64,000 nucleotides of DNA from Alphaproteobacteria bacterium (lineage in GTDB: Bacteria > Pseudomonadota > Alphaproteobacteria > MPNO01), in NCBI GenBank assembly GCA_965202905.1, contig OZ241868.1, positions 900,879 through 964,878 on the forward strand, in the 5' to 3' direction. The position numbers and the translations under genes are program-made. Shown one piece after another: positions 6,303 through 49,651 of the stretch (positions are counted from its first letter, which is position 1; each line of letters opens with the position of its first letter). The notes under the pieces are model-generated. The model made no database searches. It saw only the letters and a program-made list of their open reading frames with translations, and had not been told where the DNA came from.

Positions 6303-6339
6303 GCACCGCCAGGGCCGCCGCGATGACCGGCCAGTGTCT

Positions 6340-6601: not shown

Positions 6602-6727
6602 GCTCCAGCGGCATACGCTTCAATGAGGTTGTCGGCCTCGAGCGTGTTGAACCCACACGCAGCCGTCTATAGTTTGGCGCGCCGCTGCTCCGCTCCAGCG
6701 GGAATACGGCTTGCCCGGAGACGATGA

Positions 6728-9183: not shown

Positions 9184-9214
9184 CACAAAAGAAGGACGGC
9201 TCGAAGAGCCGTCC
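9184..9214 (-). terminator. Rho-independent terminator downstream of tRNA-Pro
   Basis: GGACGGCTC-GAA-GAGCCGTCC hairpin followed by a U-rich run on the minus-strand transcript. Confidence 0.5.
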
Positions 9215-9232
9215 CCAAGTGTTTGAAAATAT

Positions 9233-9309
<77 letters not shown>

Positions 9310-9368
9310 TCGGCTGTGCGAACGGGTGAATCATAGCAGGTTCGGGACGGATGACAACGTCTCCGGAC

Positions 9369-9899: not shown

Positions 9900-9911
9900 C
9901 GCCGCGATGCT

Positions 9912-10238
9912 CTAACCGTTCGCTTCGGCGCCGGAGAGGCGGGATAACGCGCCGTTGATGCGCGCCTTGAGCACGTTGGAGGCGCGGAAGACCAGCACCT
10001 TGCGCGGCATGATCGGGACCTCCTGTCCGGTCTTGGGATTGCGGCCGACGCGCTCTCCCTTCTGGCGGACCGAGAAGCTGCCGAAGGACGAGATCTTGAC
10101 CGGCTCGCCGCGCGTCAAGGTATCGGAGATCTCCCGCAGCACGGTCTCGACGAGGTCGGCCGATTCGTTCCGGGACAGGCCGACCTCCTGGTAGACTGCC
10201 TCGCTGAGCTGTGCGCGGGTTACGGTTTGTGGCGTCAT
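9912..10238 (-). CDS. ihfA: Integration host factor subunit alpha
   Basis: [31 protein letters not shown] ... [12 protein letters not shown] matches IHF/HU-fold IhfA. Start placed at ATG 10238. Confidence 0.85.
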
Positions 10239-10374
10239 TCCACTAGCCCCCATGGAATTTTGCCAAATCCTACTTCTACTGAATAAGGTAGTCAATTATC
10301 AAAGGGATAGAGCGATTGCCTAAAGTAGATCCGTGCCTGGGAATTCGGCGCTTCCGGACGGTTGCGGCGCCCGT

Positions 10375-11349
10375 CTACCAGCGCAGCAGGCTGGCGGCCC
10401 AGGTGAAGCCGCCGCCCATCGCCTCGAGCAGGCACAGATCGCCGCGCTTGATGCGGCCGTCCTCGGCCGCCTCGGCGAGCGCGAGCGGGATCGAGGCCGC
10501 CGAGGTGTTGGCATGCCGGTCGAGCGTGAGCACGAACTTCTCCATCGGCAGCCCGAGCTTCGACGCGGTGCTGTTGAGGATGCGCAGATTGGCCTGGTGC
10601 GGGACCACCCAGTCGATGTCCTGGGCCCGCAGCCCGTTGGCGTCGAGCGCCTCGCCCACCACCGAGGCGAGGTTGGTGACCGCATGGCGGAAAACCTCGC
10701 GGCCGACCATCTTCAGGTGTCCGACGGTGCGCGTGCTCGACGGGCCGCCATCGACATAGAGCAGGTCGTGGTGGCGTCCGTCGGAGTGCAGGTGGGTCGA
10801 GATCACCCCGCGGTCGGCGGCCTCGCCGTTGCCCTCCGCGGCGCGCAGGACCACCGCGCCGGCGCCGTCGCCGAACAGGACGCAGGTCCCGCGGTCCGTC
10901 CAATCGAGGATCCGGGAGAAGGTCTCCGCGCCGATGACCAGCGCGGTTCCGGCCTGGCCGAGGCGGATGAAGTTGTCTGCGACGGTGACCGCATAGAGGA
11001 ATCCCGAGCACACGGCCTGGATGTCGAAGGCCGCGCCCCTGGTCATGCCGAGCGCGCTCTGGACCCGGGTCGCGGTCGCGGGAAAGGTCTGGTCCGGGGT
11101 CGCGGTCGCCAGGACGATCAGATCGATGTCCGAGGGCTGCATATCCGCGCGGCCGAGCGCCCGGCAGGCGGCCTCGATCGCGAGGTCCGAGGTCTTCTCG
11201 CCGTCGGCCGCGATCCGCCGCTCGTGGATGCCGGTCCGCTGGATGATCCATTCATCGGAGGTATCGACCCGTTCGGCGAGCTCGGCATTGGTGACGATGC
11301 GCTCGGGGAGATAAGCCCCGCAGCCTGCAACGATGGAACGCAACACCAT
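10375..11349 (-). CDS. fabH: 3-oxoacyl-ACP synthase III
   Basis: Full-length KAS III: AVCSGFLYA active-site Cys region, HQANLRI, GGGFTW. Confidence 0.9.
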
Positions 11350-32158: not shown

Positions 32159-32248
32159 GGATGGGTGGCCGAGCGGTTGAAGGCGCCGGTCTTGAAAACC
32201 GGCAGGCGCGCAAGCGTCTCGTGGGTTCGAATCCCACCCCATCCGCCA
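32159..32248 (+). tRNA. tRNA-Ser (anticodon UGA)
   Basis: 90-nt class II tRNA with a long variable arm. Anticodon loop CTTGAAA, GGTTCGAATCC T-loop, CCA end. Confidence 0.85.
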
Positions 32249-32271
32249 TTATCCTGTAGCGAACCCGAGAT

Positions 32272-32305
32272 AAGGCTCCTGATTGGGGCCTTTTTCTTTT
32301 TGTTT
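32272..32305 (+). terminator. Rho-independent terminator after tRNA-Ser
   Basis: AAGGCTCC-TGATT-GGGGCCTT hairpin followed by TTTTTCTTTTTGTTT. Confidence 0.6.
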
Positions 32306-32654
32306 CAAAGGCGTTTAGCAGAGGCGCCCGAACCTCCGAGACTGGCGCAGCACCGCATTTCGGCCTCTGAACCGCTTTCGTCTCAAACTGGGCGAACCTC
32401 GCCCGGCCCGGTTCGGCTTCGTGAAGTTCAAATTTTTCAACGGGTTTCGCAGGTTGCTCAACGGCGCATTCAGCAGGCATCCTTCCGGTTGGCGTGGCCG
32501 CCCAGAGAACGCGCAGCAGGCATATTCCAGGGAATGCGCGCGTAGCCCGTCGTTATGCTGGCGACTTGGGCAAGCCGCCGATCGTCCGGTCCGCCTGTCG
32601 TAGCCCCGAGCACAACCGCGCCGACGGCGGCGTAACCCGTCTTTCGTCAAGGAG

Positions 32655-33182
32655 ATGGGCACGTCCTACGGGGAGTTCCTGACCCCCGCCAAGGCGAAGA
32701 TCGCCGCCGGCGCGCCGCGCCACGCCATGACGGACCCCGAGCTCGTATCCGTCTATGCCTACACCACCTCTGACACCAGGTGGGGATACAGCCCCCTCAA
32801 CGAGGCGCTGCGTTCGGGCGACGAAGCGCGGATCGCAAACGTGGAAAACTACCGCGACACCCTCAACGCGGCGCTCGCCAGGCTGCCCGACCAACCCGGC
32901 ACGGTGAAGCGTGGAGCCATGCTTCCGGAGTCGGTCCTGGAGCGATATTCGGTCGGCGCCGTCGTCACCGAGGATGCCTTCACCAGCACTTCCACCGGCC
33001 CGGGGTTCTCAGGACCCCATCGGTTCCTTATATATTCCAGGCACGGGAAGCGGATCGAACCCTATTCGGCTCACCCCAGTGAGCACGAGGTGCTGTTCGC
33101 TGCGGGAACAAGGTTCGAGGTCTATGAGATCAAGCCCGGCGATGGCGGACAAGTGACCATATATATGGAAGAGATCGAGTGA
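32655..33182 (+). CDS. Stand-alone ADP-ribosyltransferase-fold toxin domain protein (C3/SpvB-like R-S-E class)
   Basis: 175 aa. AGGAG RBS 7 nt upstream. An in-frame stop at 32601 excludes a longer N-terminus. Motifs: VYAYTTSDTRWGYSPLNEALRSG (YxYT ... Y..LN..LR helix), Arg in VKRGAM, STS in DAFTSTSTG, ExE in SEHEVLF. The spacing is similar to SpvB/C3 catalytic residues. Confidence 0.6.
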   Translation: MGTSYGEFLTPAKAKIAAGAPRHAMTDPELVSVYAYTTSDTRWGYSPLNEALRSGDEARIANVENYRDTLNAALARLPDQPGTVKRGAMLPESVLERYSVGAVVTEDAFTSTSTGPGFSGPHRFLIYSRHGKRIEPYSAHPSEHEVLFAAGTRFEVYEIKPGDGGQVTIYMEEIE

Positions 33183-33460
33183 TGCCGACGATGGCGAATT
33201 TGACACCAGAGCAGAAGCGCAGACTGGAGGAGTTGAGGCGGGTGGCCAAGGAGGCCGAGAACCTGCCGCCGCCGTCGGCCGAGTTCCAGGCCAAGATGGA
33301 CGACCAAGCCCTCACCAACTACATCCTCTCTCAACCCGGACCCGCGCGGGACGCCTATCTCAAGATCACCACCATGCCCCGCGACCAGTTCGAGGCCGAG
33401 TTCGCCGACGTCCTCAACGCCAACGCCTACGACGAGGACGAGGACGCCGCCGACGGCTGA
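33182..33460 (+). CDS. Small acidic protein, putative immunity/antitoxin for the upstream ART toxin
   Basis: The start (GTG 33179 or ATG 33182) overlaps the toxin stop codon. 92 aa with an acidic C-terminus (YDEDEDAADG). No recognisable enzymatic motif. Confidence 0.45.
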   Translation: MPTMANLTPEQKRRLEELRRVAKEAENLPPPSAEFQAKMDDQALTNYILSQPGPARDAYLKITTMPRDQFEAEFADVLNANAYDEDEDAADG

Positions 33461-33641
33461 TCCGCACGGCTCGATTTTCCCCGCCGGAACCACCCCTCCG
33501 AACGCCCCGGATTTACCGCCGTTTCAGCACCCCTGAAACGCCCCGAAATTCCCCCTGCAAGCCCGGATTCGCAAAGACTTTCCGCCGCCCCTCCCCCTCC
33601 CCCGCTCGAAGCATCTGGACGGCGCCGCCCTCGACATTGCC

Positions 33642-34052
33642 ATGGCGAACCACGACCCAGTCGCCTTCGAGGCGGCCGCGCGCGAAGTCGGGTTCCCTGG
33701 TTTCGGCTTCTACCCGCGCTCGGGTTTCATGCATGTCGACCTTGGTCCCGCGCGCCAGTGGGGCGAGCGCTTTCCGGTCCGGGAGACGGCATTTGCAGCC
33801 GAGACGCCGCCCGCGCGCGAAGTGCTGGCCGACAACCGCACCATGAAGAGCGGCGGAGCGGCCGGCTTCGCGACGCTGGGTGCTGCGGGCGCCGAAGTCG
33901 CGCGGAGCGTCCTGGCCGAGACGCAGACAACCATCCTGCCGCTCGTCCCGTATCTCGACACGCTGCGCCGGGTGTTCATCGCCGTGGCGCTTGGCGGGAT
34001 CACGGTCACGCTCTGTGCCCGGCTCGGCGATTGGAAGCAGAGGCGGCGATGA
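33642..34052 (+). pseudogene. Peptidase M15 / DUF882 (YcbK/MepK-like) family C-terminal fragment
   Basis: SKHLDGAALDIA ... GFGFYPRSGFMHVDLGPARQW matches the zinc-binding H-x6-D and SGFVHVD motifs of the DUF882/M15 family. Homology continues upstream of the ATG to a stop at 33534. The N-terminal roughly 120 aa are missing. Confidence 0.45.
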
Positions 34053-34217
34053 TTGGCGCGCTCTTCACGGCGTTCGCCGCCAGCCCGTGGATGCGGGCGG
34101 CGCTGCGCTACGGCGGCCCATCGTGCTCGCGGCGTTCCTGTTTCTGCTTCGCACTTCGGCGCTCCGGTGAGCGCGCCGGACGACTGGCGGAACGCCTCGA
34201 AAGCACGGAGAAGGTCA

Positions 34218-34667
34218 ATGATGTCCAACGCCAGATGCTGGGCGCTACGGCTCGCCGTCCTCGCGATCGCGACGACCTCGCTAACCGGCTGCACGACGGG
34301 CGTTTCTAAGCCGCGCATTGCCATCGTCTGCCTGCCCCTGGTCGAGTACAGTCGGGAGTTTCAGGCGCGCGCGGCCGAGGATCTCGCGCAGCTGCCGGAA
34401 GGGTCTGCCATTGCCGAAATGCTCGCCGACTACAGCGTCATGCGGGATCGGCTCGGGTGTGTCGGTGATGTTGCTGCTTGCACAAGAGGATTCTCACGCC
34501 ATTCTTTGTTCGAGCCGGTGCTTGCGCTTAGGCCAATCGGGCAGGACGCGATCCAACAGTTCAAAAAAATCTGGTCCGTGGTGCGGCACCGCGATGTGGC
34601 AGAGCTCGTGCGTGATGACGTAGTCAATCGCGTCCATGGGCGCCTCGATCAGACGGCGATTGAGTAG
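34218..34667 (+). CDS. Hypothetical lipoprotein (uncertain)
   Basis: MMSNARCWALRLAVLAIATTSLTGC signal peptide plus lipobox. The 3' 170 bp overlap the YgjP-like gene antisense, so this may be a spurious GC-rich ORF. Confidence 0.3.
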   Translation: MMSNARCWALRLAVLAIATTSLTGCTTGVSKPRIAIVCLPLVEYSREFQARAAEDLAQLPEGSAIAEMLADYSVMRDRLGCVGDVAACTRGFSRHSLFEPVLALRPIGQDAIQQFKKIWSVVRHRDVAELVRDDVVNRVHGRLDQTAIE

Positions 34668-35210
34668 AAGACGCGATGCCGGCGACATCGAACCCCACCG
34701 CTGCCGAAATTGGCGCACGATCAAACCCTTGGGGCGGAAGTCGTCAGGCACCGGGAAGCGCAGAAGGTTGACTTCCAGGCGCTCGGCGAATTTCGCATGT
34801 GCCCGCTGTCGATACCAAGCCTCGACGAGCTCGCGCGTGACCTCGGACCTCTCCGGCCTATGAGTTTGGACGACGATGAAGCCACGGACGAGCTTCACCG
34901 TCGCCTGGACGTGGGGCACTACCTTCAACCGATACTGGCGTCCGAGATAAAGATGGGTCTCGCCCGCCACATATTGGCGATCCGGGGTGCGCGGAAGGAA
35001 CTGGATGAAATAGCGCTGCTGACGCCGGATCCAGGCTGCGCGCTTGCACACCTTCTCCTCGATTGCCGCCAGCGGAGCATCCTGCGGGGCGGCGATGACA
35101 ACGGAAGCATCAGGCTCGACAGCGATTTCCAGTGTCGTCCGTTCACGGCGCACAATGGCGAAGTCGATCCTGTGTTCACCGTACTGGACGCTGTGTCGTT
35201 CGGTCTTCAT
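34494..35210 (-). CDS. YgjP-like M48-family metallohydrolase (DUF45)
   Basis: VQYGEHRIDFAIVRRERTTLEIAV N-terminus and a C-terminal HELCH zinc motif (ITHELCHIAVPHHG). This family is commonly adjacent to type I R-M hsdR genes. Confidence 0.7.
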   Translation of the reverse strand: MKTERHSVQYGEHRIDFAIVRRERTTLEIAVEPDASVVIAAPQDAPLAAIEEKVCKRAAWIRRQQRYFIQFLPRTPDRQYVAGETHLYLGRQYRLKVVPHVQATVKLVRGFIVVQTHRPERSEVTRELVEAWYRQRAHAKFAERLEVNLLRFPVPDDFRPKGLIVRQFRQRWGSMSPASRLLLNRRLIEAPMDAIDYVITHELCHIAVPHHGPDFFELLDRVLPDWPKRKHRLEQRMA

Positions 35211-38200
35211 CCCGGAAACCGCGCCCGCGCAAGGTCCATGATCTTGAGCTCAAGGTCGTCCATCACCTCTACTGGCAATGCGATGCCACGTTCATCGCGA
35301 AGGATGTCGAAGAAATAGTCGTCGATAGCGTCGCGCATCTTGTTCTGAGCGATGTCGTTGGACCAGACATCGACGATGTGATGGGACTTGATGACGTCGA
35401 TGATCGTGAGCCCGATGGACGCGACTTCATCCGCCTCAATGGGTTCGCCGTCATCGGTCGCGAGTAAGCCTTCAAGGATCCCAAAAAACGCCTGCCCATC
35501 GTCGTTGCCTCTGATCGCATCCGGCACCTCGCGACCCCGGTCCTTGCGCGCGACCTTGCTCGCCAGATCGACAACGTTCTTGAGGTAGTCCCGTTCGGAG
35601 ATCCGTTTGGCTCGGTAGTCGCGGATGGTCTCCTCCAGCAACTCGGAGAACTTCCGGTAGAAGGTCGGGTCCTCCTCCATCTTTTCGGTGATAGTCCGCC
35701 GTGTCGCGCTGGCGATCCGGTCCGCCCTTGACGCCTCGGAGACGCCCGTTTCCTCCACCACGGCTTTCAGCGCGTCCGGGTCGTTGATGTTGACCATCTC
35801 GATGATCGTCTCGGTCGGCATGGCAACCACATGGTCGTCGAGCAGCTTCTGAATCTTCGGCTCGAACTCCTTGACGTCGATGGTCTCCTGGTAGCGCAGC
35901 TGGACCGAGCGCCGCAGTTCCGAAAACTGCTTCCAGTCCCGCTTCATGGCATCGATCTTCGACTCGTCGAAGACGCCGAAGAGCTTGTCCGACGATAGCG
36001 AAATATGTAGGCAGCGGCTGAACGCCTTCAGCCGTTCATAGAATTCCTGCCGGATCGCCTCGTCGGCCAGGAACTGCTCGAACTGCTCCATATCCTTCTT
36101 GTTCTTGACCGGCTTGAACAGGTCCCAGAGCTGATCGTGCAACTGGGGCAGCCTCCGGATTTCCTCGCGCATGTCGTGGACCGTGTCGGCGAGATCGTCG
36201 GCATCAAAGCCCTCAAAGGCGCTATAGGTCGTCAGCGCCGTGTCCAGTTCTCCGAGCAGCCCCTCATAGTCGATGATGAAGCCGAACTGCTTCTCGGTTG
36301 CGCCGTCTTCGTAGAGCCGGTTCACGCGGGCGATTGCCTGCAGCAGGTTATGTTCGCGCAGCGACTTGCAGACATAGAGCACGGTATTGCGCGGCGCATC
36401 GAAACCGGTCAGCAGCTTCGAGACGACGATGAGGACTTCCGGATCGCCGGACCCTTTGAACGCCTCGATGATCTGCCGTGTGTATTCGTCCTCGGTCTTG
36501 TACCTGGCCATCATCTGCGCCCAGAACCCACGCACGAGGTCCTTCGATTCCTTGTCAACCTCCTCGTTGCCCTCGTTGTCATCGGGAGGAGAGATGACGA
36601 TTTCGCTGGTGACGTGCCCGATCTCGTCGAGCACTTCCTTGAAGCGGACGGCTGCTGCCTTGGACGGCGCCACGAGTTGGGCCTTGAACCCAGTGCCCTG
36701 CCAGTGCTGGCGAAAATGCTCCGAGATGTCGAAGGCTTTCGCCCGGATTGCCTGCCCCGTTTTCGACAGGGCGTCCATGCGCGAGAACTTGCGCTTCAGG
36801 TCGGACTTCTGGCTATCGGTCAGGCCTTCGCTGATCTTGTCGAACCACTTGTCGATCACGCCGCCATTGACCTGCTGCTCGACGAGGCGGCCCTCATAGA
36901 GGAGCGGCACGACGGCTCCATCAGCAACAGCCTCGTCAATCGCGTATTTGTGGACCAAGCCGCCGAAGGTCGAGAGCGTATTCTTCTCCTTCTTCAGGAG
37001 CGGCGTTCCGGTGAAGCCGAGATAGCAGGCCTTCGGCAGCAGCCGGCGCATCCGCGTAGCGAACTGGCTGTGACCGCCATAGCGGCCGGTCTGCGAGCGA
37101 TGGCTTTCATCGACCAGGACGAACACGTTGGCGTCCTCGTCGACATCTTCGGCGGCTTTGGCTGCCGTATCGAACTTGTTGATGATGGTCGTCACGAGCG
37201 GTGTCCGGTTGCGGATCAGCTCGATCAGATGGGCCCCGCTAGTCGCCCGCACGGGTTCCAGTTCGCAGGACTTGAACGTGTCCTTGATCTGCTTGTCGAG
37301 ATCGTCGCGGTCGGTGACGATAAGGATGCGCGGATTGGGAATGGCCTTGTCGAGCGCAAGGGATCGACCCAACATCACCATGGTCAGGGACTTGCCCGAC
37401 CCTTGAGTGTGCCAGATTACACCGCCCTTGCGCCGGCCGTCGAGGTTGAACTGGCGGACACGCTCGACAGCCTTGCGGATCCCAAAGAACTGCTGGTGGC
37501 GCGCGACCTTGCGGGCGCCGCCATCGAACACTGTGAAACGACGGATCAGATCCAGTAGGCGTTCCGGCCGACACAGCGCATGAATAGCGCGGTCCTGCGC
37601 GGTGATCGCGCGCGGCCCCTCGGCTGCAAGCGCCTCGAAATGGTCACGCGCGAAGGCGAAGTCGCCCGAGAAGACCGCATCAGCCTCAGCCCCCGTGAGA
37701 GGCCGATTGGCTAGGGGATCGATGTACTCGTCCCGGTCTTCCTCATCCCACCACATTTGCCAGAACTGCCGCGGTGTGCCCACGGTGGCGTACCGCGCCT
37801 CGACTCGGTTCATGACCATGAGAATCTGCGCGAAGTGGAATAGCTGCGGGATGTTGTCTTCGTTCTGATAGCCGATCAGCTGGCTACCAGCCTTCTTCAG
37901 GCTCTCGGTCGGCCGCTTGTTCTCGATCACCAGAAACGGGATGCCGTTCACATAGGCGACAATATCGCACCGCTTGGTTTGGGTGCTGGCCGTGCGCTCG
38001 ACGGAAAGCTCGGCCGTCACGTGATAGACGTTGTTCGCTGGCGTCTCCCAATCGATGTAGCGGAACGAATAGGACTTGGAGTCCCCCTGGATCGTCTTGG
38101 TGATAGTCGTGCCAAGGACGAGAGTGTCGTAGATGTCCTGGTTGGTGCCGCGCAGGCCCTTTTGCCGGTCGGGCGTGGGCTTCAGTCGGCGAATAGCCTC

Positions 38201-38422
38201 ATGCGCATCCTCGAGGTCGAAGGGATAGTCCCGCCCCCGATGGGTAAAGCTGTTGATCTTCAAGAGATGGTCGGCAAGGATGTCGTCGAGCACCACGTTG
38301 CGCAGACGGCCACCGCGCAGACGCACTGCCTCGGCCTGGGACAGCGGCGTGAACCCCAGCGCCACCAACAGCTGCAGGGCGGGGATCTGGGACTGATGTT
38401 TCTCGGCGGCGTCGAAGGTCAT
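35207..38422 (-). CDS. hsdR: Type I restriction enzyme R subunit
   Basis: N-terminal nuclease region (CDIVAYVNGIPFLVIENKRP), SF2 helicase motifs (HTQGSGKSLTM, DESHRS, FTGTP), C-terminal HsdR domain. Start at MTFDAAEK (ATG 38422) overlaps the upstream stop (ATGA). Confidence 0.9.
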   Translation of the reverse strand: MTFDAAEKHQSQIPALQLLVALGFTPLSQAEAVRLRGGRLRNVVLDDILADHLLKINSFTHRGRDYPFDLEDAHEAIRRLKPTPDRQKGLRGTNQDIYDTLVLGTTITKTIQGDSKSYSFRYIDWETPANNVYHVTAELSVERTASTQTKRCDIVAYVNGIPFLVIENKRPTESLKKAGSQLIGYQNEDNIPQLFHFAQILMVMNRVEARYATVGTPRQFWQMWWDEEDRDEYIDPLANRPLTGAEADAVFSGDFAFARDHFEALAAEGPRAITAQDRAIHALCRPERLLDLIRRFTVFDGGARKVARHQQFFGIRKAVERVRQFNLDGRRKGGVIWHTQGSGKSLTMVMLGRSLALDKAIPNPRILIVTDRDDLDKQIKDTFKSCELEPVRATSGAHLIELIRNRTPLVTTIINKFDTAAKAAEDVDEDANVFVLVDESHRSQTGRYGGHSQFATRMRRLLPKACYLGFTGTPLLKKEKNTLSTFGGLVHKYAIDEAVADGAVVPLLYEGRLVEQQVNGGVIDKWFDKISEGLTDSQKSDLKRKFSRMDALSKTGQAIRAKAFDISEHFRQHWQGTGFKAQLVAPSKAAAVRFKEVLDEIGHVTSEIVISPPDDNEGNEEVDKESKDLVRGFWAQMMARYKTEDEYTRQIIEAFKGSGDPEVLIVVSKLLTGFDAPRNTVLYVCKSLREHNLLQAIARVNRLYEDGATEKQFGFIIDYEGLLGELDTALTTYSAFEGFDADDLADTVHDMREEIRRLPQLHDQLWDLFKPVKNKKDMEQFEQFLADEAIRQEFYERLKAFSRCLHISLSSDKLFGVFDESKIDAMKRDWKQFSELRRSVQLRYQETIDVKEFEPKIQKLLDDHVVAMPTETIIEMVNINDPDALKAVVEETGVSEASRADRIASATRRTITEKMEEDPTFYRKFSELLEETIRDYRAKRISERDYLKNVVDLASKVARKDRGREVPDAIRGNDDGQAFFGILEGLLATDDGEPIEADEVASIGLTIIDVIKSHHIVDVWSNDIAQNKMRDAIDDYFFDILRDERGIALPVEVMDDLELKIMDLARARFPG

Positions 38423-39267
38423 TGCGTACCCTCCGAAAACAGCCCGGAGAGTGATGCCCGCGCGGCGACGACATTGATGTTGGCTTTGATAATGCGATCG
38501 AGGTCGCTGCCATCCGTGTAGATGGCGGGTGCAACGCAATGGACCCTGCCATCATTGATGTAGTTGTCGGCCTTATCGCGCGCGCCCTTGGTGTGGGGCT
38601 TGAAGACGGCCACCGAAAGCCCGCCCTGTTCCTTGACGAGTCGAAAGCACGGGATATCGGTCGGGCCGTCGCCGATGAACACCATGTTCTCGAAGGGCAC
38701 GGGCCGGTCACGCTTCTCGACGAACTGGTTGATCTTGCTGTTGTCGCTCAGGTCGAGAGCGCCCTTGTTGATGCGGAACAGATATTGCGTCTTGGTCGTG
38801 TAGTTCACGGCGAGCGCCGGCCAGGTGGCGACGCCGTTCGGGTCGAAGATGAACCTCGACGCATAGACCTGGGCGAACTTGGAAGCGATCGGCGTGCCGG
38901 CGAAGATCTCGGCATTCCCCGACGAGACGAGGTAATGTTGAACGCGGACACCCCGCACCTTGCCATAGCCGGTGATGCGGTCGAACCACTCTTCGACCCC
39001 ATCAAAAAGCTGGATGGTCTTGCCCCGTGCTTTGAAATCGTCCCGCCGCACCGGAACTTTGGCCGCGGCCGCCTTGCTCAGCATCAGGTTCATGTAGACA
39101 AGCACTTCGTCCGCCTTATGCTCCTTGGTCAGGTGCTTTACCTCGGCCCAGAACTCCTTCGGTTTCATGCCGATGTCGGGCAGGAACTGGTGTTCCGGCA
39201 TGTTGCCGTTCGCCAACGTGCCGTCGAAGTCGTAGGCGATCGCCATTTCGATGTATTTCTTAGCCAT
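38419..39267 (-). CDS. HAD-superfamily phosphatase-like protein embedded in the type I R-M operon
   Basis: HAD motif I DFDGTL, motif II SSG, motif IV GDGPTD. RBS (GGAGAG) 12 nt after the hsdS stop. Its stop overlaps the hsdR start. Confidence 0.6.
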   Translation of the reverse strand: MAKKYIEMAIAYDFDGTLANGNMPEHQFLPDIGMKPKEFWAEVKHLTKEHKADEVLVYMNLMLSKAAAAKVPVRRDDFKARGKTIQLFDGVEEWFDRITGYGKVRGVRVQHYLVSSGNAEIFAGTPIASKFAQVYASRFIFDPNGVATWPALAVNYTTKTQYLFRINKGALDLSDNSKINQFVEKRDRPVPFENMVFIGDGPTDIPCFRLVKEQGGLSVAVFKPHTKGARDKADNYINDGRVHCVAPAIYTDGSDLDRIIKANINVVAARASLSGLFSEGTQ

Positions 39268-39279
39268 ACGATCTCTCCT

Positions 39280-40539
39280 TCAGACGGCGACGCGCCATTC
39301 GCCCGTCAGCAGCTTCTGCATCAGGCCGCGTTTCTGGCGGGTGAACAGGTCGATCTCCGCTTCGATGGCGGCGAGTTCGGCCCACGATACTTCCACCACC
39401 TCGGCGATGGCGGATTGCTCGGCTGGATCCATCGGCAGGTGCAATTTGCCTTCGAGGAAGCGGCGATTGGTGATTGCGATGGTGTTCTTTGCGCCCTTTT
39501 GCACAAGCGGGTGCAGGTAGTTGCGCACCGCGACGGGGGACTCGAACAGGGCATCGAGGATCACGCCGAGCGCGCGGGTCGCCGGGGCGAATACACCGTA
39601 GAGCGGCGAGACGATTACCTCTTGCGAAATCTTGCTCTGCTTGATGATGCCTAGCGGGAAATCTCCGGTCGGGCTCTTGGTGTAGACGATATCGCCGGGC
39701 AGAACGCGGTTGTAGTGACCGGTTTCGGCAGCAGCGAAGGATCGTCCAAGGTGCTCGATCTGATTGACCATGCCTTTGTGGACCGAGACAGAGAACACTT
39801 CCTCTGCACCGGTCCCTTGCAGCCTGTGTTCGGTAAGCATCTCGCCCAGAGCCACATCGCGCCATTCATCCGTCTGACCGGGTAGCCGTGTGCGCCCTGT
39901 GAACAGATGAGTGCGCATCCAGATGCGGCGCCGAAGGTTTGCCGCCCGCAGCGTCTCCAGCTTCTCGATGGCCTCGTCCCATGTCCACAGGATATCGGCG
40001 ATCTTGCGTTGTTCGGGGAGTGGTGGAAGCGGGAGCGGACAGTGCTTGCGGAACTCCGTCGGATTAATGTTCGCTTGGCTCACCCCGCGAGTTGAAAGGC
40101 GCTTCAGTGCCGTTTGGGCGATGGCGGTATTTAGCCAGTAGTTCACATATTCTGGATCGGCTTTCTCGCGATCAACGTCGAGCCTGACGAGATAGGACGC
40201 GAATACAGCTTGAGAGTCTTCTCTGACTATTCCCGCCTTGCCAACGAGGTCAGCACTGTTGGTTCGATTGAGAAGTATATCTCCACGCCGAAGTTGCATA
40301 CCTGTCCAATCAGCTCCGCCGTCATCGACAGTAGCTAGGCCGATCAGATTTACAGATCCGTTGTTGAGATCGCGCATCCCGACTATGGGCGTGTTACCGG
40401 TGGAATCGCCGGGCTCGCTTAGACCATATTGCGTGCCCAGCAGAGCGTTTCCAACGGACACGAGGCGCCAGTCATCGGGCAACTCGCTATCGAAAAGAGA
40501 GCGGGTAAAGGCAGATTGATGGTTCTTTCGCTTAAGCAT
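39280..40539 (-). CDS. hsdS: Type I restriction-modification specificity subunit (two target-recognition domains)
   Basis: Conserved HsdS repeats (LPLPPLPEQRKIADIL ... central coiled coil ... second TRD ... QKRGLMQKLLTGEWRV). Start at MLKRKN (ATG 40539). Confidence 0.85.
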   Translation of the reverse strand: MLKRKNHQSAFTRSLFDSELPDDWRLVSVGNALLGTQYGLSEPGDSTGNTPIVGMRDLNNGSVNLIGLATVDDGGADWTGMQLRRGDILLNRTNSADLVGKAGIVREDSQAVFASYLVRLDVDREKADPEYVNYWLNTAIAQTALKRLSTRGVSQANINPTEFRKHCPLPLPPLPEQRKIADILWTWDEAIEKLETLRAANLRRRIWMRTHLFTGRTRLPGQTDEWRDVALGEMLTEHRLQGTGAEEVFSVSVHKGMVNQIEHLGRSFAAAETGHYNRVLPGDIVYTKSPTGDFPLGIIKQSKISQEVIVSPLYGVFAPATRALGVILDALFESPVAVRNYLHPLVQKGAKNTIAITNRRFLEGKLHLPMDPAEQSAIAEVVEVSWAELAAIEAEIDLFTRQKRGLMQKLLTGEWRVAV

Positions 40540-41548
40540 CGTTGCGCCCCTTCTTCCGCCCCTTGGCGACCTTCTCCATCTTCTCCAGCCGGGCGATGTC
40601 ATCCGCGTCCGCCGCCAGCGCCTCGGCGGCACGGCGGTTGGCGTCGAATGCCTCAAGTCGCTCGATGGCCAGCTTCTGGGCTATGTCCATCCGCAACCGC
40701 CCGGCATGGGTCAGCACGTCACGTTCGTTAAAGGAGAGGAAGGCGTCGAGTTTGTCGGCCCATTCGGCCATGGTAACCGGCCGACGGCGCTTCGCCTGAT
40801 CCTCCGCATAGTCGAGGTACATCACGACGATGCGGTTGAGCTCCTCGACCTCTTCGGCCTTGAGATAGTTTTTGGCGGTGCCGACATCGCCCTTGCGCAC
40901 GACCGAGCCTTTCCAGCTGGTCAGGCCCATATTGGGTGCTCTGGGGTTGCTGCGGCTTTCGATCAGCTCGGCAGCCGTCTTGCCCGTGACCGCCCAGAGC
41001 ATCTTGTTCTGCACCTTCTTAAAGAACGCCTGCGCCTGTTCGGACGTCTTGTCGTAGTCGATGGCGGTCGTGTAGAGGTCGCGCACCTTCTGGTAGAAGC
41101 GCTTCTCCGAAGCGCGGATGTCCCGGATGCGGGCAAGCCATTCGTCGAAATAGTCCCATTGCTCGGCTTGGCTAAGCCGGGCATCGTCCATGGCGAAACC
41201 CTTGACTAGGTATTCGCGCAGGACGGTTGTGGCCCAGCGGCGGAACTGGGTGCCGCGCGCCGAGCGAACCCGGTATCCGACCGCCAGAATGGCGTCCAGA
41301 TTGTAGACCTTCGTGCGGTAGGCCTTGCCGTCCGAGGCAGTTGTCAAGGATTCCTTGACAACTGCCTCGGCCGTCAGCTCCCCCTCTGACAGGATGTTGT
41401 TGATGTGCAGGCTGACGTTTTGCTTGGAGGTGTCGAACAGCTCGGCCATCTCCAGCTGGGTCAGCCAGACCGTGCCATCGATGGCGCGCAGGCCGATGGT
41501 CGCTGCGCCATCGTCGGTGTTGTAGAGGATCAGTTCGCCTTCAGACAC
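40532..41548 (-). CDS. rhuM: RhuM-family virulence/defence-associated protein
   Basis: LEMAELFDTSKQNVSLHINNILSEGEL ... VGYRVRSARGTQFRRWATTVLREYLVKGF ... RIRDIRASEKRFYQKVRDLYTTAIDYD ... MYLDYAEDQAKRR matches the RhuM family nearly motif for motif. Typical position between hsdM and hsdS. Confidence 0.8.
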   Translation of the reverse strand: MSEGELILYNTDDGAATIGLRAIDGTVWLTQLEMAELFDTSKQNVSLHINNILSEGELTAEAVVKESLTTASDGKAYRTKVYNLDAILAVGYRVRSARGTQFRRWATTVLREYLVKGFAMDDARLSQAEQWDYFDEWLARIRDIRASEKRFYQKVRDLYTTAIDYDKTSEQAQAFFKKVQNKMLWAVTGKTAAELIESRSNPRAPNMGLTSWKGSVVRKGDVGTAKNYLKAEEVEELNRIVVMYLDYAEDQAKRRRPVTMAEWADKLDAFLSFNERDVLTHAGRLRMDIAQKLAIERLEAFDANRRAAEALAADADDIARLEKMEKVAKGRKKGRNDA

Positions 41549-43058
41549 CGACGCCCAGCTCCTTCAGATAGCCAGCCATGCGCCCGCGCACCTCAGCCAA
41601 CTCGATCTCGATCGTGTTGATCTGCTTCTGCAGGGCGGCGACGTCGATTTCCTCCTCCGGCTCGAAGGTGTCGACGTAGCGGGGGATGTTGAGGTTGAAG
41701 TCGTTCTCGGCGATCTCCTCCGGGCTGGCGCGGTGCGCGTATTTCTCGATCTCCGCCCGCGAGGCATAGGTTTCCAGCACCTTGGTGATATGCGCCTCGT
41801 CCATCACGTTCTGGGTCTTGCCCGGCGTGAACTCCTTGCTGGCGTCAATGAACAGGATGTCGCGCCGATCCTCATTTGCGCCGCCCTGTTCACGGGAGCG
41901 GTCGAAGACCAGAATAGCCACCGGAATGCCCGTGGTCGTGAACAGGTTGGCGGGCAGCCCCACCACCGCGTCGAGCAGGTTTTCTTCGATCAGCGCTTGC
42001 CGAATCCGCCCCTCGGCTCCGCCCCGGAACAACACGCCATGCGGAACGATGACGGCCGCCCGGCCGCTCTGGCGCTTGGCGATCTCGATCATGTGGGTGA
42101 TGAAGCCGTAGTCGCCCTTGGACTTCGGCGGGATGCCACGCCAGTAGCGCTTGAACTGGTCGGTGTCCGCGTTTTCCGCCCCCCATTTGTCGAGGCTGAA
42201 CGGAGGATTCGCCACCACCACGTCGAACTTCATCAGGTGATCGCCCTCGACCAGAGCGGGGCTGTTGAGCGTGTCGCACCACTCGATGCGCGCGGCGTCC
42301 TTGGCGTGGAGAAACATGTTCATCCGCGCCAGCGCCCATGTCGCGCCGTTCACTTCCTGGCCATAAAGGGCGAAGTTCTCGGACCCGACTTCCTCGGCCG
42401 CCCGGATCAACAGCGAGCCGGACCCGCAGGCCGGGTCGCAGATCGTATCACCCGGCTTGGGTGCCGCCAGTTTCGCCAGCAGGCGGGAGACGGCGGAGGG
42501 CGTGTAGAACTCGCCGGCCTTCTTGCCCGCATCGGACGCAAACCGCGAGATCAGATAGATGTAGCATTCGCCGATGATGTCCTCGGTCACCCGCGAAGGG
42601 CGCAGGTCGAGCGCGGGCTTGGCGAAATCTTCCAGCACGTTCTTGAGGCGACGATTGCGGTCCTTGACGCGCCCGAGATTGGCCTCGGAGTTGAAGTCGA
42701 TGTTGCGGAACACCCCTGCGAGCTTGGCGCGGTTGGTATCTTCGATCCGCTCCAGCGCGATATTGATCCGCTCACCGATATCGGGCACGTTCCGCGCTTC
42801 ATAAAGATCGTAGAAGCTGGCGCCTTCATGGAGGACGAAACGCTCGCGCTCCAGCCTGCGGCGGATCCGGGTTTCGTCCCTGCCATACTGCTTGCGGTAA
42901 GTTTCGAGGTGATCGTTCCAGTGGTCAGAGATGTACTTCAGAAACAGCATCACAAGGATGTAGTCCTTGTACTGTCCGGCATCGACGACGCCCCGAAAAG
43001 TGTCGCAAGCGGCCCAGGCCGTCTGGTTGACCTGTTGCTGGGTGAGTTGGTCGGTCAT
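41541..43058 (-). CDS. hsdM: Type I restriction-modification DNA methyltransferase subunit
   Basis: N-terminal HsdM_N, SAM motif DPACGSGSLL, catalytic NPPF (VVANPPFS), C-terminal helical domain. Confidence 0.9.
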   Translation of the reverse strand: MTDQLTQQQVNQTAWAACDTFRGVVDAGQYKDYILVMLFLKYISDHWNDHLETYRKQYGRDETRIRRRLERERFVLHEGASFYDLYEARNVPDIGERINIALERIEDTNRAKLAGVFRNIDFNSEANLGRVKDRNRRLKNVLEDFAKPALDLRPSRVTEDIIGECYIYLISRFASDAGKKAGEFYTPSAVSRLLAKLAAPKPGDTICDPACGSGSLLIRAAEEVGSENFALYGQEVNGATWALARMNMFLHAKDAARIEWCDTLNSPALVEGDHLMKFDVVVANPPFSLDKWGAENADTDQFKRYWRGIPPKSKGDYGFITHMIEIAKRQSGRAAVIVPHGVLFRGGAEGRIRQALIEENLLDAVVGLPANLFTTTGIPVAILVFDRSREQGGANEDRRDILFIDASKEFTPGKTQNVMDEAHITKVLETYASRAEIEKYAHRASPEEIAENDFNLNIPRYVDTFEPEEEIDVAALQKQINTIEIELAEVRGRMAGYLKELGVGV

Positions 43059-43660
43059 TTGGACGTCCTTTCCTGCCTCGTCTTGGGACGCATCCTGCTC
43101 GCTTGCTCGACGAGGATCAGGCTCATCATCTTTCTTCGTATCTCGGCGGCGAGTTGAGACAGCTCCCGCTCCCGCTCGGCCAGCGCATCGACCGCGACTA
43201 TTCTTCTCTGTGTCTCGATGTCTGGGACATCGAGTTCGAGGTCATCAAGGCTGGATCGGGGGATCATCCGGATGTTCGTGCCACATGCCGCGACATCGAA
43301 GTGGCGCTGCGCCGGGGGCTGGTTGATCGCCCATGCTAGATACTCGGGCGTCACGACATCACGGTTCGGACGCAGCACCATCAGAGGGAGCACTGCAAGG
43401 GCGGGCTCCTGCAGACGCTCGTCCAGAGCGGAGGCCGTGTTGCGCTCACCCCGCGAGCGGAACACCACATCGCCGGCGCGAACGAAATAGCGGTCCGCCA
43501 AGTCTCCCAGCTGGACGCGGGTGAGGCGCTCCGGATCGAAGAGGCCGTCGGGGGAAATGTCCCGCAACTGGATTGCGAGCATACCCCCGACGGTCGTCGG
43601 CTCCAGTCTGCCGCGAGCGGTATAGCCGGTATGGATGGCACAGGCGTCAGCGAGGCGCAT
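43055..43660 (-). CDS. Single-TRD (half) HsdS-like specificity protein
   Basis: About 200 aa, with one target-recognition domain plus a conserved C-terminal coiled-coil region (RRIVAVDALAERERELSQLAAEIRRK). Overlaps the hsdM start. Start placed at MRLADAC (ATG 43660). Confidence 0.6.
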   Translation of the reverse strand: MRLADACAIHTGYTARGRLEPTTVGGMLAIQLRDISPDGLFDPERLTRVQLGDLADRYFVRAGDVVFRSRGERNTASALDERLQEPALAVLPLMVLRPNRDVVTPEYLAWAINQPPAQRHFDVAACGTNIRMIPRSSLDDLELDVPDIETQRRIVAVDALAERERELSQLAAEIRRKMMSLILVEQASRMRPKTRQERTSK

Positions 43661-43666
43661 CGAAAT

Positions 43667-43692
43667 TTCTCTGTAACTCTCTCTACAGAGAA
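43667..43692. promoter_or_regulatory. Perfect 9-bp inverted repeat (TTCTCTGTA-N8-TACAGAGAA) 7 nt upstream of the half-hsdS start
   Basis: Directly visible palindrome in the leader of the half-hsdS/hsdM operon. Candidate operator or RBS-occluding hairpin. Confidence 0.4.
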
Positions 43693-43813
43693 TAAGCGCG
43701 CGCAAGCCTGCTGTCAATGCTGAAAAGCGGCGCAAGCCCGCGCCGACGGACGCCGACCGAACGTCCGAGCGCTTCCGCGGCGCCCGACATGCGTAATCGC
43801 GGTTGGAGCGCGG

Positions 43814-45126: not shown

Positions 45127-48100
45127 CGCCCGAGCCCCAGCGCAGCCAAAAGCCGTTGCCAGACGGGCTGCGCAGGCGGCGCAGGCGCCGCTTCCCCGCC
45201 GCCTTCCCTGCCATCCCCGCCTGCCCTGCCATCGCCGCCGCCGACCTGCGCGCCCAGCCGCTGAAAGAACTGGCGGACCAGCGCCCGGGCGGCGCCTTCC
45301 AGCATGCGCCCGCCGACCGCGGCCACGGCGCCGGAGATCCCGACGGTGTATTCGTAGGAGACCCGCGTACCGCCGTCGGCCGGCGCGAGCCGCACCCGCC
45401 CTTCGCCTTGCGAGGAGCCGAGCGGTCCGGCGAGATCGCCGGAAATCCGCGCGGATTTCGGCGGATCCAGCTCCGACAGGCTGACATTCGCCTTGAACTT
45501 TCCGCGCACCGGCCCGGCGCCGAGGCTCGCCTCGGCGCGGTAGCTGTTCTCGGCCACGAGGCGAAGCGCGTGGCACCCGGGGATCACGGCGGCAAGCTTG
45601 TCGGGGTCGAGCAGTGTCCGCCAGACCTCCTCCGGCCCGGCGGGGAGCACGGTCTCGCCGGAACCCGCCAGCACATGACCCGCGGCCTTCTCCGCACCGG
45701 CCGGCTCCGCCCGGCCGGCCGGCGGCGGCGGTTCTTCAGCATGGATCAGCGCGCTGACGCCGGCGGGAGTCAACGGCAGGGTGACGTTCTCGACATCGAG
45801 CGCATCGCATACCGCGTTGGCGATGCAGACCGGCGTGGACATGCAGTTGCCCTCGCCGATCCCCTTGGCGCCCAAAGGCGTCAGGAGCGACGGCGTCTCC
45901 ATGTGCAGGATCACCGGCTCGGGCACCTCCCAGGACGTCGGAACCAGATAGTCGGCGAAGGTGCCGGTCAGAAAGCTGCCGTCCTCGCCATAGGCGAACT
46001 CCTCGTAAAGCGCGCAGCCGACGCCCCAGGCGAACGCGCCATGAATCTGGCCGTCGGCGAGCAGCGGGTTCAGGAGCTTGCCGGAATCGTGCATCGTCAC
46101 ATATTTGTCGATCCGGATCTCGGCCGTGTCGCGGTCGACCTCCACGCCGCAATAGTCGAAGACGAAGCCGTAGGTCAGCGAGGAGTTGATCTGGTCGGAA
46201 TCGTTGGGCGGCTCCATTTCCGGCGGCGACCAGGAGCCGGTCTCGCGAACGCCGGGCTCCATCCCGTCGGGCAGGTTGCCCGGCGTCCAATGGGCCGCGC
46301 CCGCGGCACGGTAGAGATCGATGGCGTTCTCCGGGTTGTCCGCGGCGAAGATTTTTCCCCCGGCGAACGTGAGGTTTTCGGCCGGCGCGTTCAGCGTCTG
46401 GCTCGCGATCCGGGCGAGCTTGGTGCGCGCCTTCTTGGCCGCGATGTCGGCCGCGACAGCGGTGGACGACGAGAACCGGGAGGAATAGTTACCGGTCGCG
46501 ATCGACCAAGCGTCCTTCGCGGTGTCGTGCTCCAAATTGACGTGGATGTTTTCGGGCCTGAGTCCCAGATTGTCGGCGACGATCTGGGACAGCACCGTCA
46601 TGTGGCCCTGGCCCTGCGGAATCGAGTCGGCCGTGACGTTGACGGCGCCCAGCGGGTCGACGTTTACGGTGGCGTTCGAGACCGCCCCCCCCTTGGGGTT
46701 CCGACGGCGCTCCTCGCGCGGCAGGATGTTGCTGAGATAGCCCATGTTGGACTGCGCCGGCTCGACGATCACGGCGTAGCCGACGCCGTAGAGCCGGCCC
46801 TCCTCGCGCGCCTCATCGCGCCGGCGCTTGAGATCGTCCAGCCCGCCCTGCGCCGCGCCGAGATTCACCGCCCGGGGAAAATCGCCCGAATCGAGCAGCG
46901 CCCCCGCGGCGGCGCGGTAAGGAAAGACCCCGGCCGGAACCAGGTTGCGGGAGATCACATCCAGGGGATCGAGCCCCAGCTCGACCGCGACGCGGTGGAC
47001 CAGCCGCTCGATGGCGTAATACATCTGCGGCCCGCCGAAGCCGCGGACCATCGCCGACGGGCACTTGTTGGTCATCACCACGCGGTTGGTGACCGCGAGG
47101 TTCCTGATGTCGTAGGCGCCGGTCAAGACGCCGTGCATACGGTAGAGCGGCCCCGGCATCGGCGCGCGCAGGAAGGCGCCGTAGTCGTCGAGCTGGTCGA
47201 AGCGGAAGGCCGTGATCTCGCCATCGGTCTTGACCGCGGCCGCGATCTCGATCACCCGGTTGGGCGCGGCGCTGGCGGCGCTGAGATGTTCGAGGCGGTC
47301 TTCGACCCATTTGACCGGCCGGCCGGCGACCTTGGAGGCCAGCCCCATCAAGACGACATAGGGAAAGATCTGTACCTTGACCCCGAAGCCGCCGCCGGAA
47401 AAGTTGGGCGTGCGCATGCGAAGCCTGGAGCTGGAGACCCGGAGCGCCTTCGAGATCACCGTATGGGTCGTATAGGGACCCTGAAAGTTCGAGGCCACGT
47501 CGTAGGATCCGGTCGCCGGGTCGTAATCCGCGGTCACCACATAGCCTTCGAGCGGGGTCTGGGAATTGCGCGGGTAGGAGATCTTGAGCCTGACCGTCCG
47601 GTCGGCCTCGGCGAACGCCTTGTCCGGGTCGCCGTAGACGAAGTCGCGCGTGGACACGACATTGCTGCCGACTTCCTCATGGACCAGCGGCGCGCCTTCG
47701 GCAGCCGCCTCTTCGGCGTCGACAGCGGGCTCGAGCGCGCGGTACTCGACCTCGATATGGGCCAGCGCATCCTCGGCCTGGTAACGGTCGCCCGCCAGCA
47801 CGAGGGCCACCGGCTCTCCGACATAGCGGACCCGGTCGACCGCAAGCGCCCATTGCAGCATCGGCTGGCGCAGGACGATCAGGAACGGATCGGAGATCTC
47901 CTTCAGCTCGTCCCCGGTCAACACCGCGGCGACGCCGGGCCGCGCCTTCGCCCCGGCGGTCTCCAGCGAGACGATCTCGGCATGGGCATGGGGCGAGCGC
48001 AGGATCGCGGCGTGCAGGGTCCCCGTCCGGGTCGGCAGATGGTCGGAGAACATCGCCCGACCGGTCAGCAGCGCCGCATCCTCGACGCGCTCGACCGCCC

Positions 48101-48287: not shown

Positions 48288-48962
48288 TCATTGATGCGCA
48301 GGTAGATCATCAATGCGCAGGTATTCTCCCTCTTTGGACTGCTTCTCGTCCTTCTGACACCGGGTGATCTTACGAAGGCCTTTAGGAAGGGGGAGCTCTA
48401 ACCAAAGAGGCCGACCGTTCGGCTTCATCCAACTTGGCCAATCTCCGTGGTAAATGCGTTCGGACTCTCGGGGAGACATCAACACCAAATGCGGCACTAC
48501 AAGGTCTACGCCCGGTCCGTCTTTTCGGAAGATGTGTTTCAGACGCTTGACCTTAGATAGCAACTGTTTGTTTGTCCAGCCCGTGTCCCCCTTCGCTTCG
48601 ATAAGCATGAGGTGTGTTTTGTGATCGCTTTCATTCTGAAAACCTATGAGCAGATCTATATCCCGATGGTTCGCTTTAAAAAGCTCTAGATTTTTGTTGC
48701 AAATCAGGCCCGGCGCCGGATCATTTTCCGACAGACGATTTTTTTCCGCCAGATAGAGTGCGACTTGGATCCAATCCAGGTGGTAGTCCATAGCAACAAA
48801 CGCGTTGTCTGGAACTGAGATATTCAGAATTTGTTCCAATTTTCTTCTAAATTCAGGATCGAGACAGAAAGCCTCTACACCCAACGCTCTACTTAGGAGG
48901 ATGAAGCGCTCCTTTCGATTGAACGACTGGAGGTGTTCGATAATTTTTGGCGCTGGCTGCAT
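48288..48962 (-). CDS. Hypothetical protein with a PD-(D/E)xK nuclease-like motif, in a low-GC insert
   Basis: Only convincing ORF in a roughly 48% GC segment inside about 68% GC DNA. DIDLLIGF ... THLMLIEAKGD resembles the PD-(D/E)xK core (D ... ExK). Confidence 0.45.
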   Translation of the reverse strand: MQPAPKIIEHLQSFNRKERFILLSRALGVEAFCLDPEFRRKLEQILNISVPDNAFVAMDYHLDWIQVALYLAEKNRLSENDPAPGLICNKNLELFKANHRDIDLLIGFQNESDHKTHLMLIEAKGDTGWTNKQLLSKVKRLKHIFRKDGPGVDLVVPHLVLMSPRESERIYHGDWPSWMKPNGRPLWLELPLPKGLRKITRCQKDEKQSKEGEYLRIDDLPAHQ

Positions 48963-49651
48963 CTAAACCACCTATACTAGAGCGGACGGGATGTCCGCTT
49001 ACCCAGCCAAGCACACGCAGCGCGTGCTTCAACGCCCTCCGGCGACTTCCGCATCCAGCTCATCTCAACTCATACCGCCTCTCGTGGCGAACGTCCCGCC
49101 GGACGACATTATCGAAAAACTCCGCGAACCGGCCCGTCCCGAAGGCTCGAAGGCCGGCCCATCCCGAAGGAAATGTATCGGAACCAGCACATGGGGGGCA
49201 AGAGCGGCGGCGAAGCGTTTGAGGTCGGCTTCAGGACCCTGCGCGAACGATCCTGCTTCAGACAGCCCTCCCCCATCGAATAGGCGAGCGCGCGGCCCCG
49301 GCGTCGGCGCGCAGAGCATCGGCGCGCGCAGGAAGGCGCCGCAGTCGTCGAGCTGGTCGAAAATGGTCCTGGTGGGGGTACGAGACCAGCACGCCCGAGA
49401 GGCTGTCGTCATGTTCCCGGAATCCGGAAACCGCCGGCGGCAGGCTTTCGCGCGCACCCTCGTCGTCGGGCGCGTCGAGCGGCAGGCCGACATCGAGCGC
49501 AAGGCGTTTGCCTCGACTGTGCCTCGACTTCGATGCACGCGGCGACGATCGTCGGGCGGCTTGCCCACAAGCGCCCGACGGGACAGGATACCCTGGTATC
49601 TTCGTGCTGCAATATCTTCGCGCTGCAATCGCCGGTCGGGCGGGAGGGACG

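Follow-up and report, generated by a model that had tools for sequence, protein, structure and literature searches.

A 5'-truncated MuF ADP-ribosyltransferase gene and its overlapping acidic partner gene, a probable Mu-like prophage remnant beside an alphaproteobacterial tRNA-Ser

An ADP-ribosyltransferase gene and an acidic partner gene behind tRNA-Ser

In the alphaproteobacterial contig OZ241868.1 we analysed a stretch of 64 kb, called the window throughout, in which a tRNA-Ser gene is followed on the same strand by two overlapping open reading frames (ORFs). The upstream ORF encodes an ADP-ribosyltransferase (ART) domain and the downstream ORF a small acidic protein; the stop codon of the former and the start codon of the latter share one nucleotide (TGATG). 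The pair (32640-33460, approximately 0.8 kb) is very probably the remnant of a Mu-like prophage, made up of the truncated 3' end of a MuF::ART fusion gene and its partner gene, as judged from sequence comparison. Residues 1-514 of the fusion protein, which comprise the MuF domain and a central domain, as well as the rest of the prophage are lost in the window. An initial annotation of this DNA had described the pair as a minimal stand-alone module, possibly a novel type II-like toxin-antitoxin system, or else as an orphan effector/immunity cassette detached from its delivery system. The former description is not supported, since the closest homologs of the ART are C-terminal domains of Phage_Mu_F fusions and the window copy is 5'-truncated. 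The latter was essentially right, except that the delivery system would have been the phage capsid (MuF) and not a type VI (T6SS) or type VII (T7SS) secretion system or contact-dependent inhibition (CDI).

Table 1. Positions of the gene pair and of the surrounding features in the window (R-M, restriction-modification).
Feature	Position	Strand	Remarks
tRNA-Ser	32159-32248	+	anticodon UGA; ARAGORN; Rfam tRNA 61 bits; left island edge
5'-truncated MuF::ART remnant (as assigned)	32640-33182	+	corresponds to residues 515-694; complete ART domain kept
ART ORF	32655-33182	+	175 aa, ATG start
Small acidic ORF	33182-33460	+	92 aa from ATG; 93 aa from GTG at 33179
Phage peptidase fragment (DUF882/M15-type)	33642-34052	+	first ~88 residues gone
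Rest of island	34494-43735	-	YgjP metallopeptidase, type I R-M, RhuM, PDC-S34 (Pfam, PADLOC)
hsdR	35207-38539	-	type I R-M
PDC-S34 candidate defence gene	38419-39267	-	282-aa HAD-like ORF; PADLOC PDLC05002, E 5e-120
hsdS	39280-40656	-	type I R-M
RhuM	40532-41548	-	
hsdM	41541-43058	-	type I R-M
half-hsdS	43055-43735	-	type I R-M

By profile, alignment and model, the upstream ORF is predicted to hold a complete R-S-ExE ADP-ribosyltransferase domain, and this assignment is solid. The protein scored above the gathering cut-offs of the Pfam profiles PF01129 (39.3 bits, cut-off 22.3) and PF03496, ADPrib_exo_Tox (29.6 bits, cut-off 23.4), the two profiles against which a check had been proposed; NCBIfam gave a sub-threshold XopAI match only. 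Its best sequence match in the PDB is Tre1 (6DRE_B/6DRH_B, E 5e-17, 29% identity). R86, S111-T-S and E143-H-E145 of the window ART align to the RG, STS and EAE motifs of Tre1, and R86, S111, E143 and E145 are invariant across the family alignment. The R-S-E signature noticed in the initial annotation is thus confirmed. The proposed structural comparison likewise returned an ART fold: the AlphaFold2 model (pLDDT 79.7) gave a Foldseek TM-score of 0.83 to Tre1 (6DRH) and of 0.79 to XopAI, followed in the PDB ranking by Vis, HopU1 and ExoS, with C3 and SpvB lower. A particular likeness to SpvB and C3, which had been suggested from the motif spacing, was not found; the nearest relatives are Tre1, XopAI and Vis, and SpvB and C3 are more distant members of the same fold. 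Pfam detected no PAAR, VgrG or other T6SS delivery domain in the ART protein, and PADLOC no defence-model match for it or for the small protein. A second ART-like piece on the minus strand (42527-42261), inside hsdM, was returned by tblastn with the N-terminal helical region of the ART (28% over 93 aa, E 0.001) and was treated as a chance match.

The ATG of the ART ORF lies 407 bp past the 3' end of tRNA-Ser, in agreement with the approximately 400 bp given initially. A terminator-like hairpin with a T-run is located at 32272-32292, 3' of the tRNA gene, and an Rfam scan of 31.8-34.6 kb revealed nothing besides the tRNA. A scan tuned to E. coli-type promoters found no sigma-70-type promoter in 32200-33700, a range which includes the DNA behind this terminator. 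The motif AAGGAG directly touches the ATG, with zero spacer. Because of the lacking spacer, the start at an internal Met (see below) and the lacking promoter-like site behind the terminator, the ART remnant is probably silent or weakly expressed, as far as such sequence signals indicate.

The small protein has an isoelectric point (pI) of 4.3 and contains 19 Asp and Glu as compared to 10 Lys and Arg residues. Its AlphaFold2 model (pLDDT 84.7) consists of five helices and a disordered Asp/Glu tail, and Foldseek against the PDB yielded no match with an E-value below 5. No family in Pfam, NCBIfam or PADLOC was matched above threshold. Helix-turn-helix (HTH), ribbon-helix-helix (RHH) and AbrB domains were not detected by Pfam, the model being a helical bundle, nor were ADP-ribosylhydrolase (ARH) or macro domains by Pfam and NCBIfam. 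The protein belongs to an uncharacterised family without a Pfam model or PDB relative, which agrees with the initial description of an overlapping acidic gene of no recognisable fold. An ADP-ribosylhydrolase gene does not adjoin the pair in the window or its relatives in the loci L003-L013.

Full-length relatives in Mu-like prophages and truncation of the window copy

A homolog of the small protein (P0013, 63% identity) is encoded directly after a protein of 694 aa, which carries a Phage_Mu_F domain (76 bits) at its N-terminus and an ART at its C-terminus. In the loci L003 and L004 the gene order is Gp27, terminase, Portal_Mu, MuF::ART, small gene, Mu protease and gpT; the same arrangement was found in L011 and in the IMG/VR viral contigs L008 and L009. 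Phage_Mu_F (PF04233) is present in L003/4, L010 and L011 and in the proteins P0028, P0030, P0048, P0053 and P0062. Searches with the ART by HMMER, against PHROG and in cultured phages are independent of the small protein. The exhaustive HMMER search retrieved 2734 relatives, the best being the 696-aa MuF::ART P0028. Of the top 75 relatives, 64 have the ART no more than 25 aa away from the C-terminus, and 43 reach a length of 350 aa or more. Phage_Mu_F is present in five of the ten closest long relatives, one of these five being a Portal_Mu-MuF-ART fusion. The closest ART homologs are C-terminal domains of Phage_Mu_F fusion proteins of 636-887 aa. Cultured Xanthomonas, Pseudomonas and Variovorax phages carry the ART (33-38% identity) within genes whose annotation reads 'morphogenesis' or 'minor head protein'. 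Against PHROG, it matched best to the C-terminal ends of families described as 'virion structural protein' or head protein. When the ART was used to find more distant viral loci, ten were obtained, and in eight of them it terminates an ORF of 573-1151 aa.

The window ART is 59% identical over 181 aa to residues 515-694 of the 694-aa MuF::ART of L003 (tblastn). The homology begins at 32640, five codons 5' of the ATG (SFVKEMG in place of AFVKELG), and does not extend further upstream. Similarity to the prophage loci at the nucleotide level is confined to 32643-33441, with nothing on either side; this comparison of the region with all loci relies on its blastn part, tblastx being swamped by high-GC noise. 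In the 64-kb window tblastn detected neither MuF-like sequence nor a full-length MuF gene. Because the homology to longer proteins crosses the ATG, we take the initiator Met of the window ORF to be an internal residue of a longer ancestral protein, and its N-terminus a truncation scar and not a native start. In the initial annotation a stop codon upstream, the in-frame TAG at 32601-32603 (18 codons 5' of the ATG), had been read as excluding a longer N-terminus. This is correct for the present ORF but not for its ancestry. Since Phage_Mu_F is absent from the window but present in the homologs, the window gene is best assigned as a fragment derived from a MuF polymorphic toxin, not as itself a member of this class.

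Other loci contain MuF::ART genes that are shortened to a different extent. Homology to the 694-aa protein starts at residue 91 in L010, where an IS21 element is inserted upstream; at residue 419 in L013, which also has a frameshift and lies between greA and an amidohydrolase gene; at residue 433 in L001; at residue 458 or earlier in L002, which is cut by the contig end and so not established as a truncation; at residue 515 in the window, after tRNA-Ser; at residue 531 in L006, among metabolic genes; and at residue 644 in L007, where 51 ART codons are left. In L012 the small gene is found alone, with no toxin fragment. The remnants in L006 and L013 still have the catalytic motifs, and the small gene is intact in all remnant loci except L001. 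Such a series of independent 5' truncations sparing the small gene is modestly new. The source genome of the window reportedly contains further copies, namely an ART fragment (P0002, 87%) and two paralogs of the small gene (P0008, 91%; P0009, 75%). P0002 is near-identical to the window ART over approximately 93 aa and diverges in the last approximately 20 aa.

Several observations weigh against a mere prophage remnant. The 175-aa ORF is intact, starts with ATG and has kept every catalytic residue. At least three representative proteins (P0034, P0045, P0066) start at the same conserved Met, and P0031, P0052 and the ORFs of L006 and L013 start at a second conserved Met, 'HGMTDPEL'. These shared start positions are more regular than random deletion alone predicts. 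They may reflect gene callers picking conserved Mets inside remnants; alternatively, the conserved Met at the ART boundary could be a true limit between domains, or the place where translation starts internally or where processing releases free ART. Concerning the partner gene, L001, a locus ascertained by the ART, retains only a 'DQALTN' motif fragment of it, and the overlapping 96-aa ORF of L002 is at best a distant relative of the small protein (hhalign E 1.3e-3). Moreover, since most remnant loci were found through the small protein, its constant presence in them is partly an ascertainment effect.

Four side observations on the related loci may be added. Between the MuF and ART domains, the full-length proteins carry a conserved central domain of approximately 250 aa (L003 7917-10001, residues ~250-510; also in L009, L010 and L011) with motifs such as 'DVWLANWDAVGTGLDNVV', for which neither a Pfam nor a PDB sequence match was obtained. 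P0048 (1020 aa) combines Portal_Mu, Phage_Mu_F and ART in one polypeptide, being either a real fusion or the result of a missed stop or frameshift in the assembly. In L011 the head module (Gp27, terminase, portal, MuF::ART, small gene) stops right after the small gene (6285-6620) and hydantoinase genes come next; this prophage is 3'-truncated at the same boundary as the window remnant. L012 also has a DruA-domain (Druantia-type) protein and a D12 methyltransferase (9038-10699 (-) and 7137-7955 (-)), the latter resembling a methyltransferase that the intact prophages L003 and L004 encode 3' of the small gene.

The small acidic protein, known systems and rival explanations

Homologs of both proteins are rare: a word-indexed search gave 21 for the small protein and six for the ART. 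At ten loci (L003/4/5, L006, L007, L008/9, L010, L011, L013) a homolog of the small gene lies directly 3' of a MuF::ART gene or its remnant, overlapping or abutting it. Across five loci ART identity and small-protein identity co-vary. At the ten more distant viral loci mentioned above, the ART is followed either by a small ORF that is unrelated or by the next head gene, and none of these matches the small-protein profile. Because the identities co-vary and the distant ARTs are adjoined by unrelated small ORFs, the ART and the small gene appear to fit a co-evolving toxin-immunity pair. The initial proposal of a toxin followed by a gene in immunity position has therefore stood up, in that the small gene is conserved, overlapping and co-diverging. 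By analogy, the small protein is predicted, with a modest preference, to be the cognate immunity protein of the ART domain.

Several known systems resemble the pair. The full-length homologs share with MuF polymorphic toxins (Jamet et al. 2017, PMC5576092; Zhang et al. 2012, PMC3482391) an N-terminal Phage_Mu_F and a C-terminal ART, and they too are encoded in the head module by the portal gene, with the small gene downstream. The window copy differs in having neither a MuF domain nor a prophage; it is flanked by tRNA-Ser and, at its other end, by a truncated phage peptidase gene and type I R-M genes. This MuF::ART clade, which is modestly new, is alphaproteobacterial, with one locus from a gammaproteobacterial metagenome-assembled genome, and its proteins carry the unannotated central domain; earlier reports of MuF toxins with known domains came mainly from Firmicutes. 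The main text of PMC5576092 does not contain the word 'orphan', and orphan remnants are not described there under that name. Bxa of the Bacteroides stercoris prophage PhiBxa is a MuF::ART which acts on Arg residues; a small protein, Bsi, neutralises it (Alexei et al. 2024, PMC11699363). Bsi, too, is encoded next to its toxin; it is a non-enzymatic immunity protein which, according to a model, covers the active site. However, the small protein of the window has no PDB fold match, and a relation to Bsi was neither detected nor tested; moreover, no ADP-ribosylhydrolase gene equivalent to BAH or Tri1 adjoins the window pair or the full-length homologs, and the host phylum differs.

Tre1 of Serratia proteamaculans, an arginine ART modifying FtsZ R174 (PMC8120803; Tre1-Tri1 entries 6DRE and 6DRH), is the closest solved ART domain and shares the R-S-ExE triad. 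It acts between bacteria, on FtsZ R174 and on other proteins. In contrast to the window pair, which has no PAAR, no T6SS link and no hydrolase, Tre1 is T6SS-delivered via PAAR, and Tri1, a DraG-like hydrolase, has an N-terminal extension that occludes. Orphan C-terminus/immunity modules of CDI, Rhs and Maf systems likewise consist of a 5'-truncated toxin C-terminus followed by an intact immunity gene, with several copies per genome; the window pair differs from them in that it is not arrayed 3' of a full-length toxin gene, retains almost no upstream homology for recombination and has a decayed prophage, not a secretion-system locus, as its origin. Alt of phage T4 is a capsid-packaged R-S-E ART which is injected with the DNA and modifies RNA polymerase alpha R265 and MazF. 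It is likened here by description and not by sequence, as a phage-borne R-S-E ART located in the head and delivered at infection; no MuF domain is fused to Alt, an immunity gene is missing, and T4 is virulent.

In the intact system, the N-terminal MuF domain would target the protein into the capsid, and the toxin would enter the host cytoplasm together with the phage DNA. Capsid delivery is the hypothesis advanced for MuF toxins, 14% of which are ARTs (PMC5576092; PMC3482391). The C-terminal R-S-ExE ART would then mono-ADP-ribosylate arginines of host proteins, an arginine specificity suggested by the ExE motif together with Tre1 and Bxa. The small acidic protein, whose gene is translationally coupled to that of the toxin, would protect the producing cell or lysogen by binding to the ART and obstructing its active site, in the manner of Bsi acting on Bxa. 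In the window, the intact small gene is the part most likely still functional, and its product may neutralise the same ART from related phages or leaky product of the remnant. That the small gene was kept by selection, orphan immunity genes from decayed Mu-like prophages neutralising the capsid-delivered ART of superinfecting relatives, with an internal start or processing at the ART-boundary Met as a further variant, is in our estimate rather unlikely. In favour of it are at least three paralogs in the source genome and the location of the window copy in a defence island with type I R-M and PDC-S34. If retention is indeed selected, orphan immunity genes would provide a cheap defence against phage-delivered effectors ('immunity-gene capture').

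Three rival explanations were considered besides the prophage remnant. A domesticated stand-alone toxin-antitoxin pair, with a 175-aa or 151-aa ART held in check by the small protein and stabilising the defence island as a type II-like addiction or abortive-infection module, would account for an intact ORF with all catalytic residues, for the gene overlap, for the location in a defence island and for the recurrence in unrelated genomes of short ORFs from the same two conserved Mets; the catalytic motifs retained in L006 and L013 would fit as well. We nevertheless regard it as quite improbable. In homologous loci the toxin is not autonomous, its closest relatives being the C-terminal domains of the long fusion proteins, and in the window the homology reaches 5' of the ATG. 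The 5' end points differ from locus to locus, with a frameshift in L013, and the ART is nearly or wholly lost in L007 and L012. Moreover, an AAGGAG without spacer and the lack of a promoter-like site behind the tRNA terminator do not suit an active toxin gene, nor do the missing DNA-binding domain in the small protein and the missing PADLOC match suit such a module. The open frame itself of 175 codons is weak evidence at 65% GC, where spurious ORFs longer than 100 aa are abundant.

Less probable still is a recombination cassette, as in CDI, Rhs or Maf systems, in which the orphan toxin C-terminus/immunity pair would be a reservoir for switching the toxin/immunity type of a resident full-length MuF gene. 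The toxin-immunity organisation is typical of polymorphic-toxin cassettes (PMC3482391), and the additional copies P0002, P0008 and P0009 in the same genome would be in keeping with it, as would the near-identity of P0002 followed by its divergent end, which suggests mosaic exchange. However, no full-length MuF gene lies within the window, the retained upstream homology amounts to five codons only, every cassette found is of the same toxin type, and the other orphans are located among housekeeping genes, far from phage. Sliding-window identity across the full-length proteins revealed gradual divergence and no sharp boundary near residue 515, that is, no junction of constant and variable parts. 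Concerning the small protein, a role other than immunity is unlikely: it would be a phage accessory factor, such as a chaperone or packaging adaptor for MuF::ART, or an unrelated moron, and its presence in the window neutral hitch-hiking. Its fold has no functional or structural precedent, the immunity role is deduced from position and analogy only, its retention is partly an ascertainment effect and the gene is degenerate in L001, all of which would be compatible with such a role. Against it, the gene was found to overlap or adjoin the stop codon of the toxin at all loci examined, it diverges in step with the ART, more distant ARTs have unrelated small ORFs in its place, and it is intact where only 51 ART codons are left (L007) or the ART is absent (L012); moreover, the protein is small and acidic like many immunity proteins, for which Bsi is a precedent.

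With the prophage remnant as the preferred explanation, what looked like a minimal ART toxin-antitoxin module is reassigned to a known class, the phage MuF polymorphic toxins, and such remnants can mislead annotation. In addition, the small helical acidic proteins form a new candidate immunity family, without a Pfam model or structural relative.

The defence island and its surroundings

The ORF following the pair is another 5'-truncated phage gene. It matches phrog_17373 'peptidase' (E 3e-59) at profile positions 89-223 of 224 and the C-terminal end only of Pfam Peptidase_M15_2, and has approximately 72% nucleotide identity to the peptidase gene of Rhodobacter phage RcHartney. With this neighbour, the pair is placed in phage debris where a defence island of approximately 11.5 kb, without an integrase, begins on the tRNA side. 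Core cox-type dehydrogenase genes resume at approximately 43.8 kb. Over most of its length the island has a GC content of 0.58-0.64 as compared to 0.655 for the window. No integrase was found in the island, as had been stated initially, and no T6SS genes are among its annotated genes (32.2-43.8 kb). An att repeat of the tRNA-Ser 3' end was not detected elsewhere in the window, and no informative long repeats flank the pair.

Two observations concern the interior of the island. A lipobox-like 'LTGC' occurs in the ORF 34053-34667 (+), 3' of the truncated peptidase gene. This ORF matches phrog_26778 (E 1e-13), a family of unknown function, and a phage lysis cassette may have left it behind as a spanin-like remnant. 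The PDC-S34 candidate sits between hsdR and hsdS and is thus embedded in the type I R-M operon. Further downstream, a 46-nt direct repeat (98% identical; 47156-47201 and 49316-49361) brackets a segment of low GC content (0.53), which contains a 224-aa ORF (48288-48962, minus strand) without a Pfam or PHROG match and is possibly a small insertion by a cox-type dehydrogenase gene.

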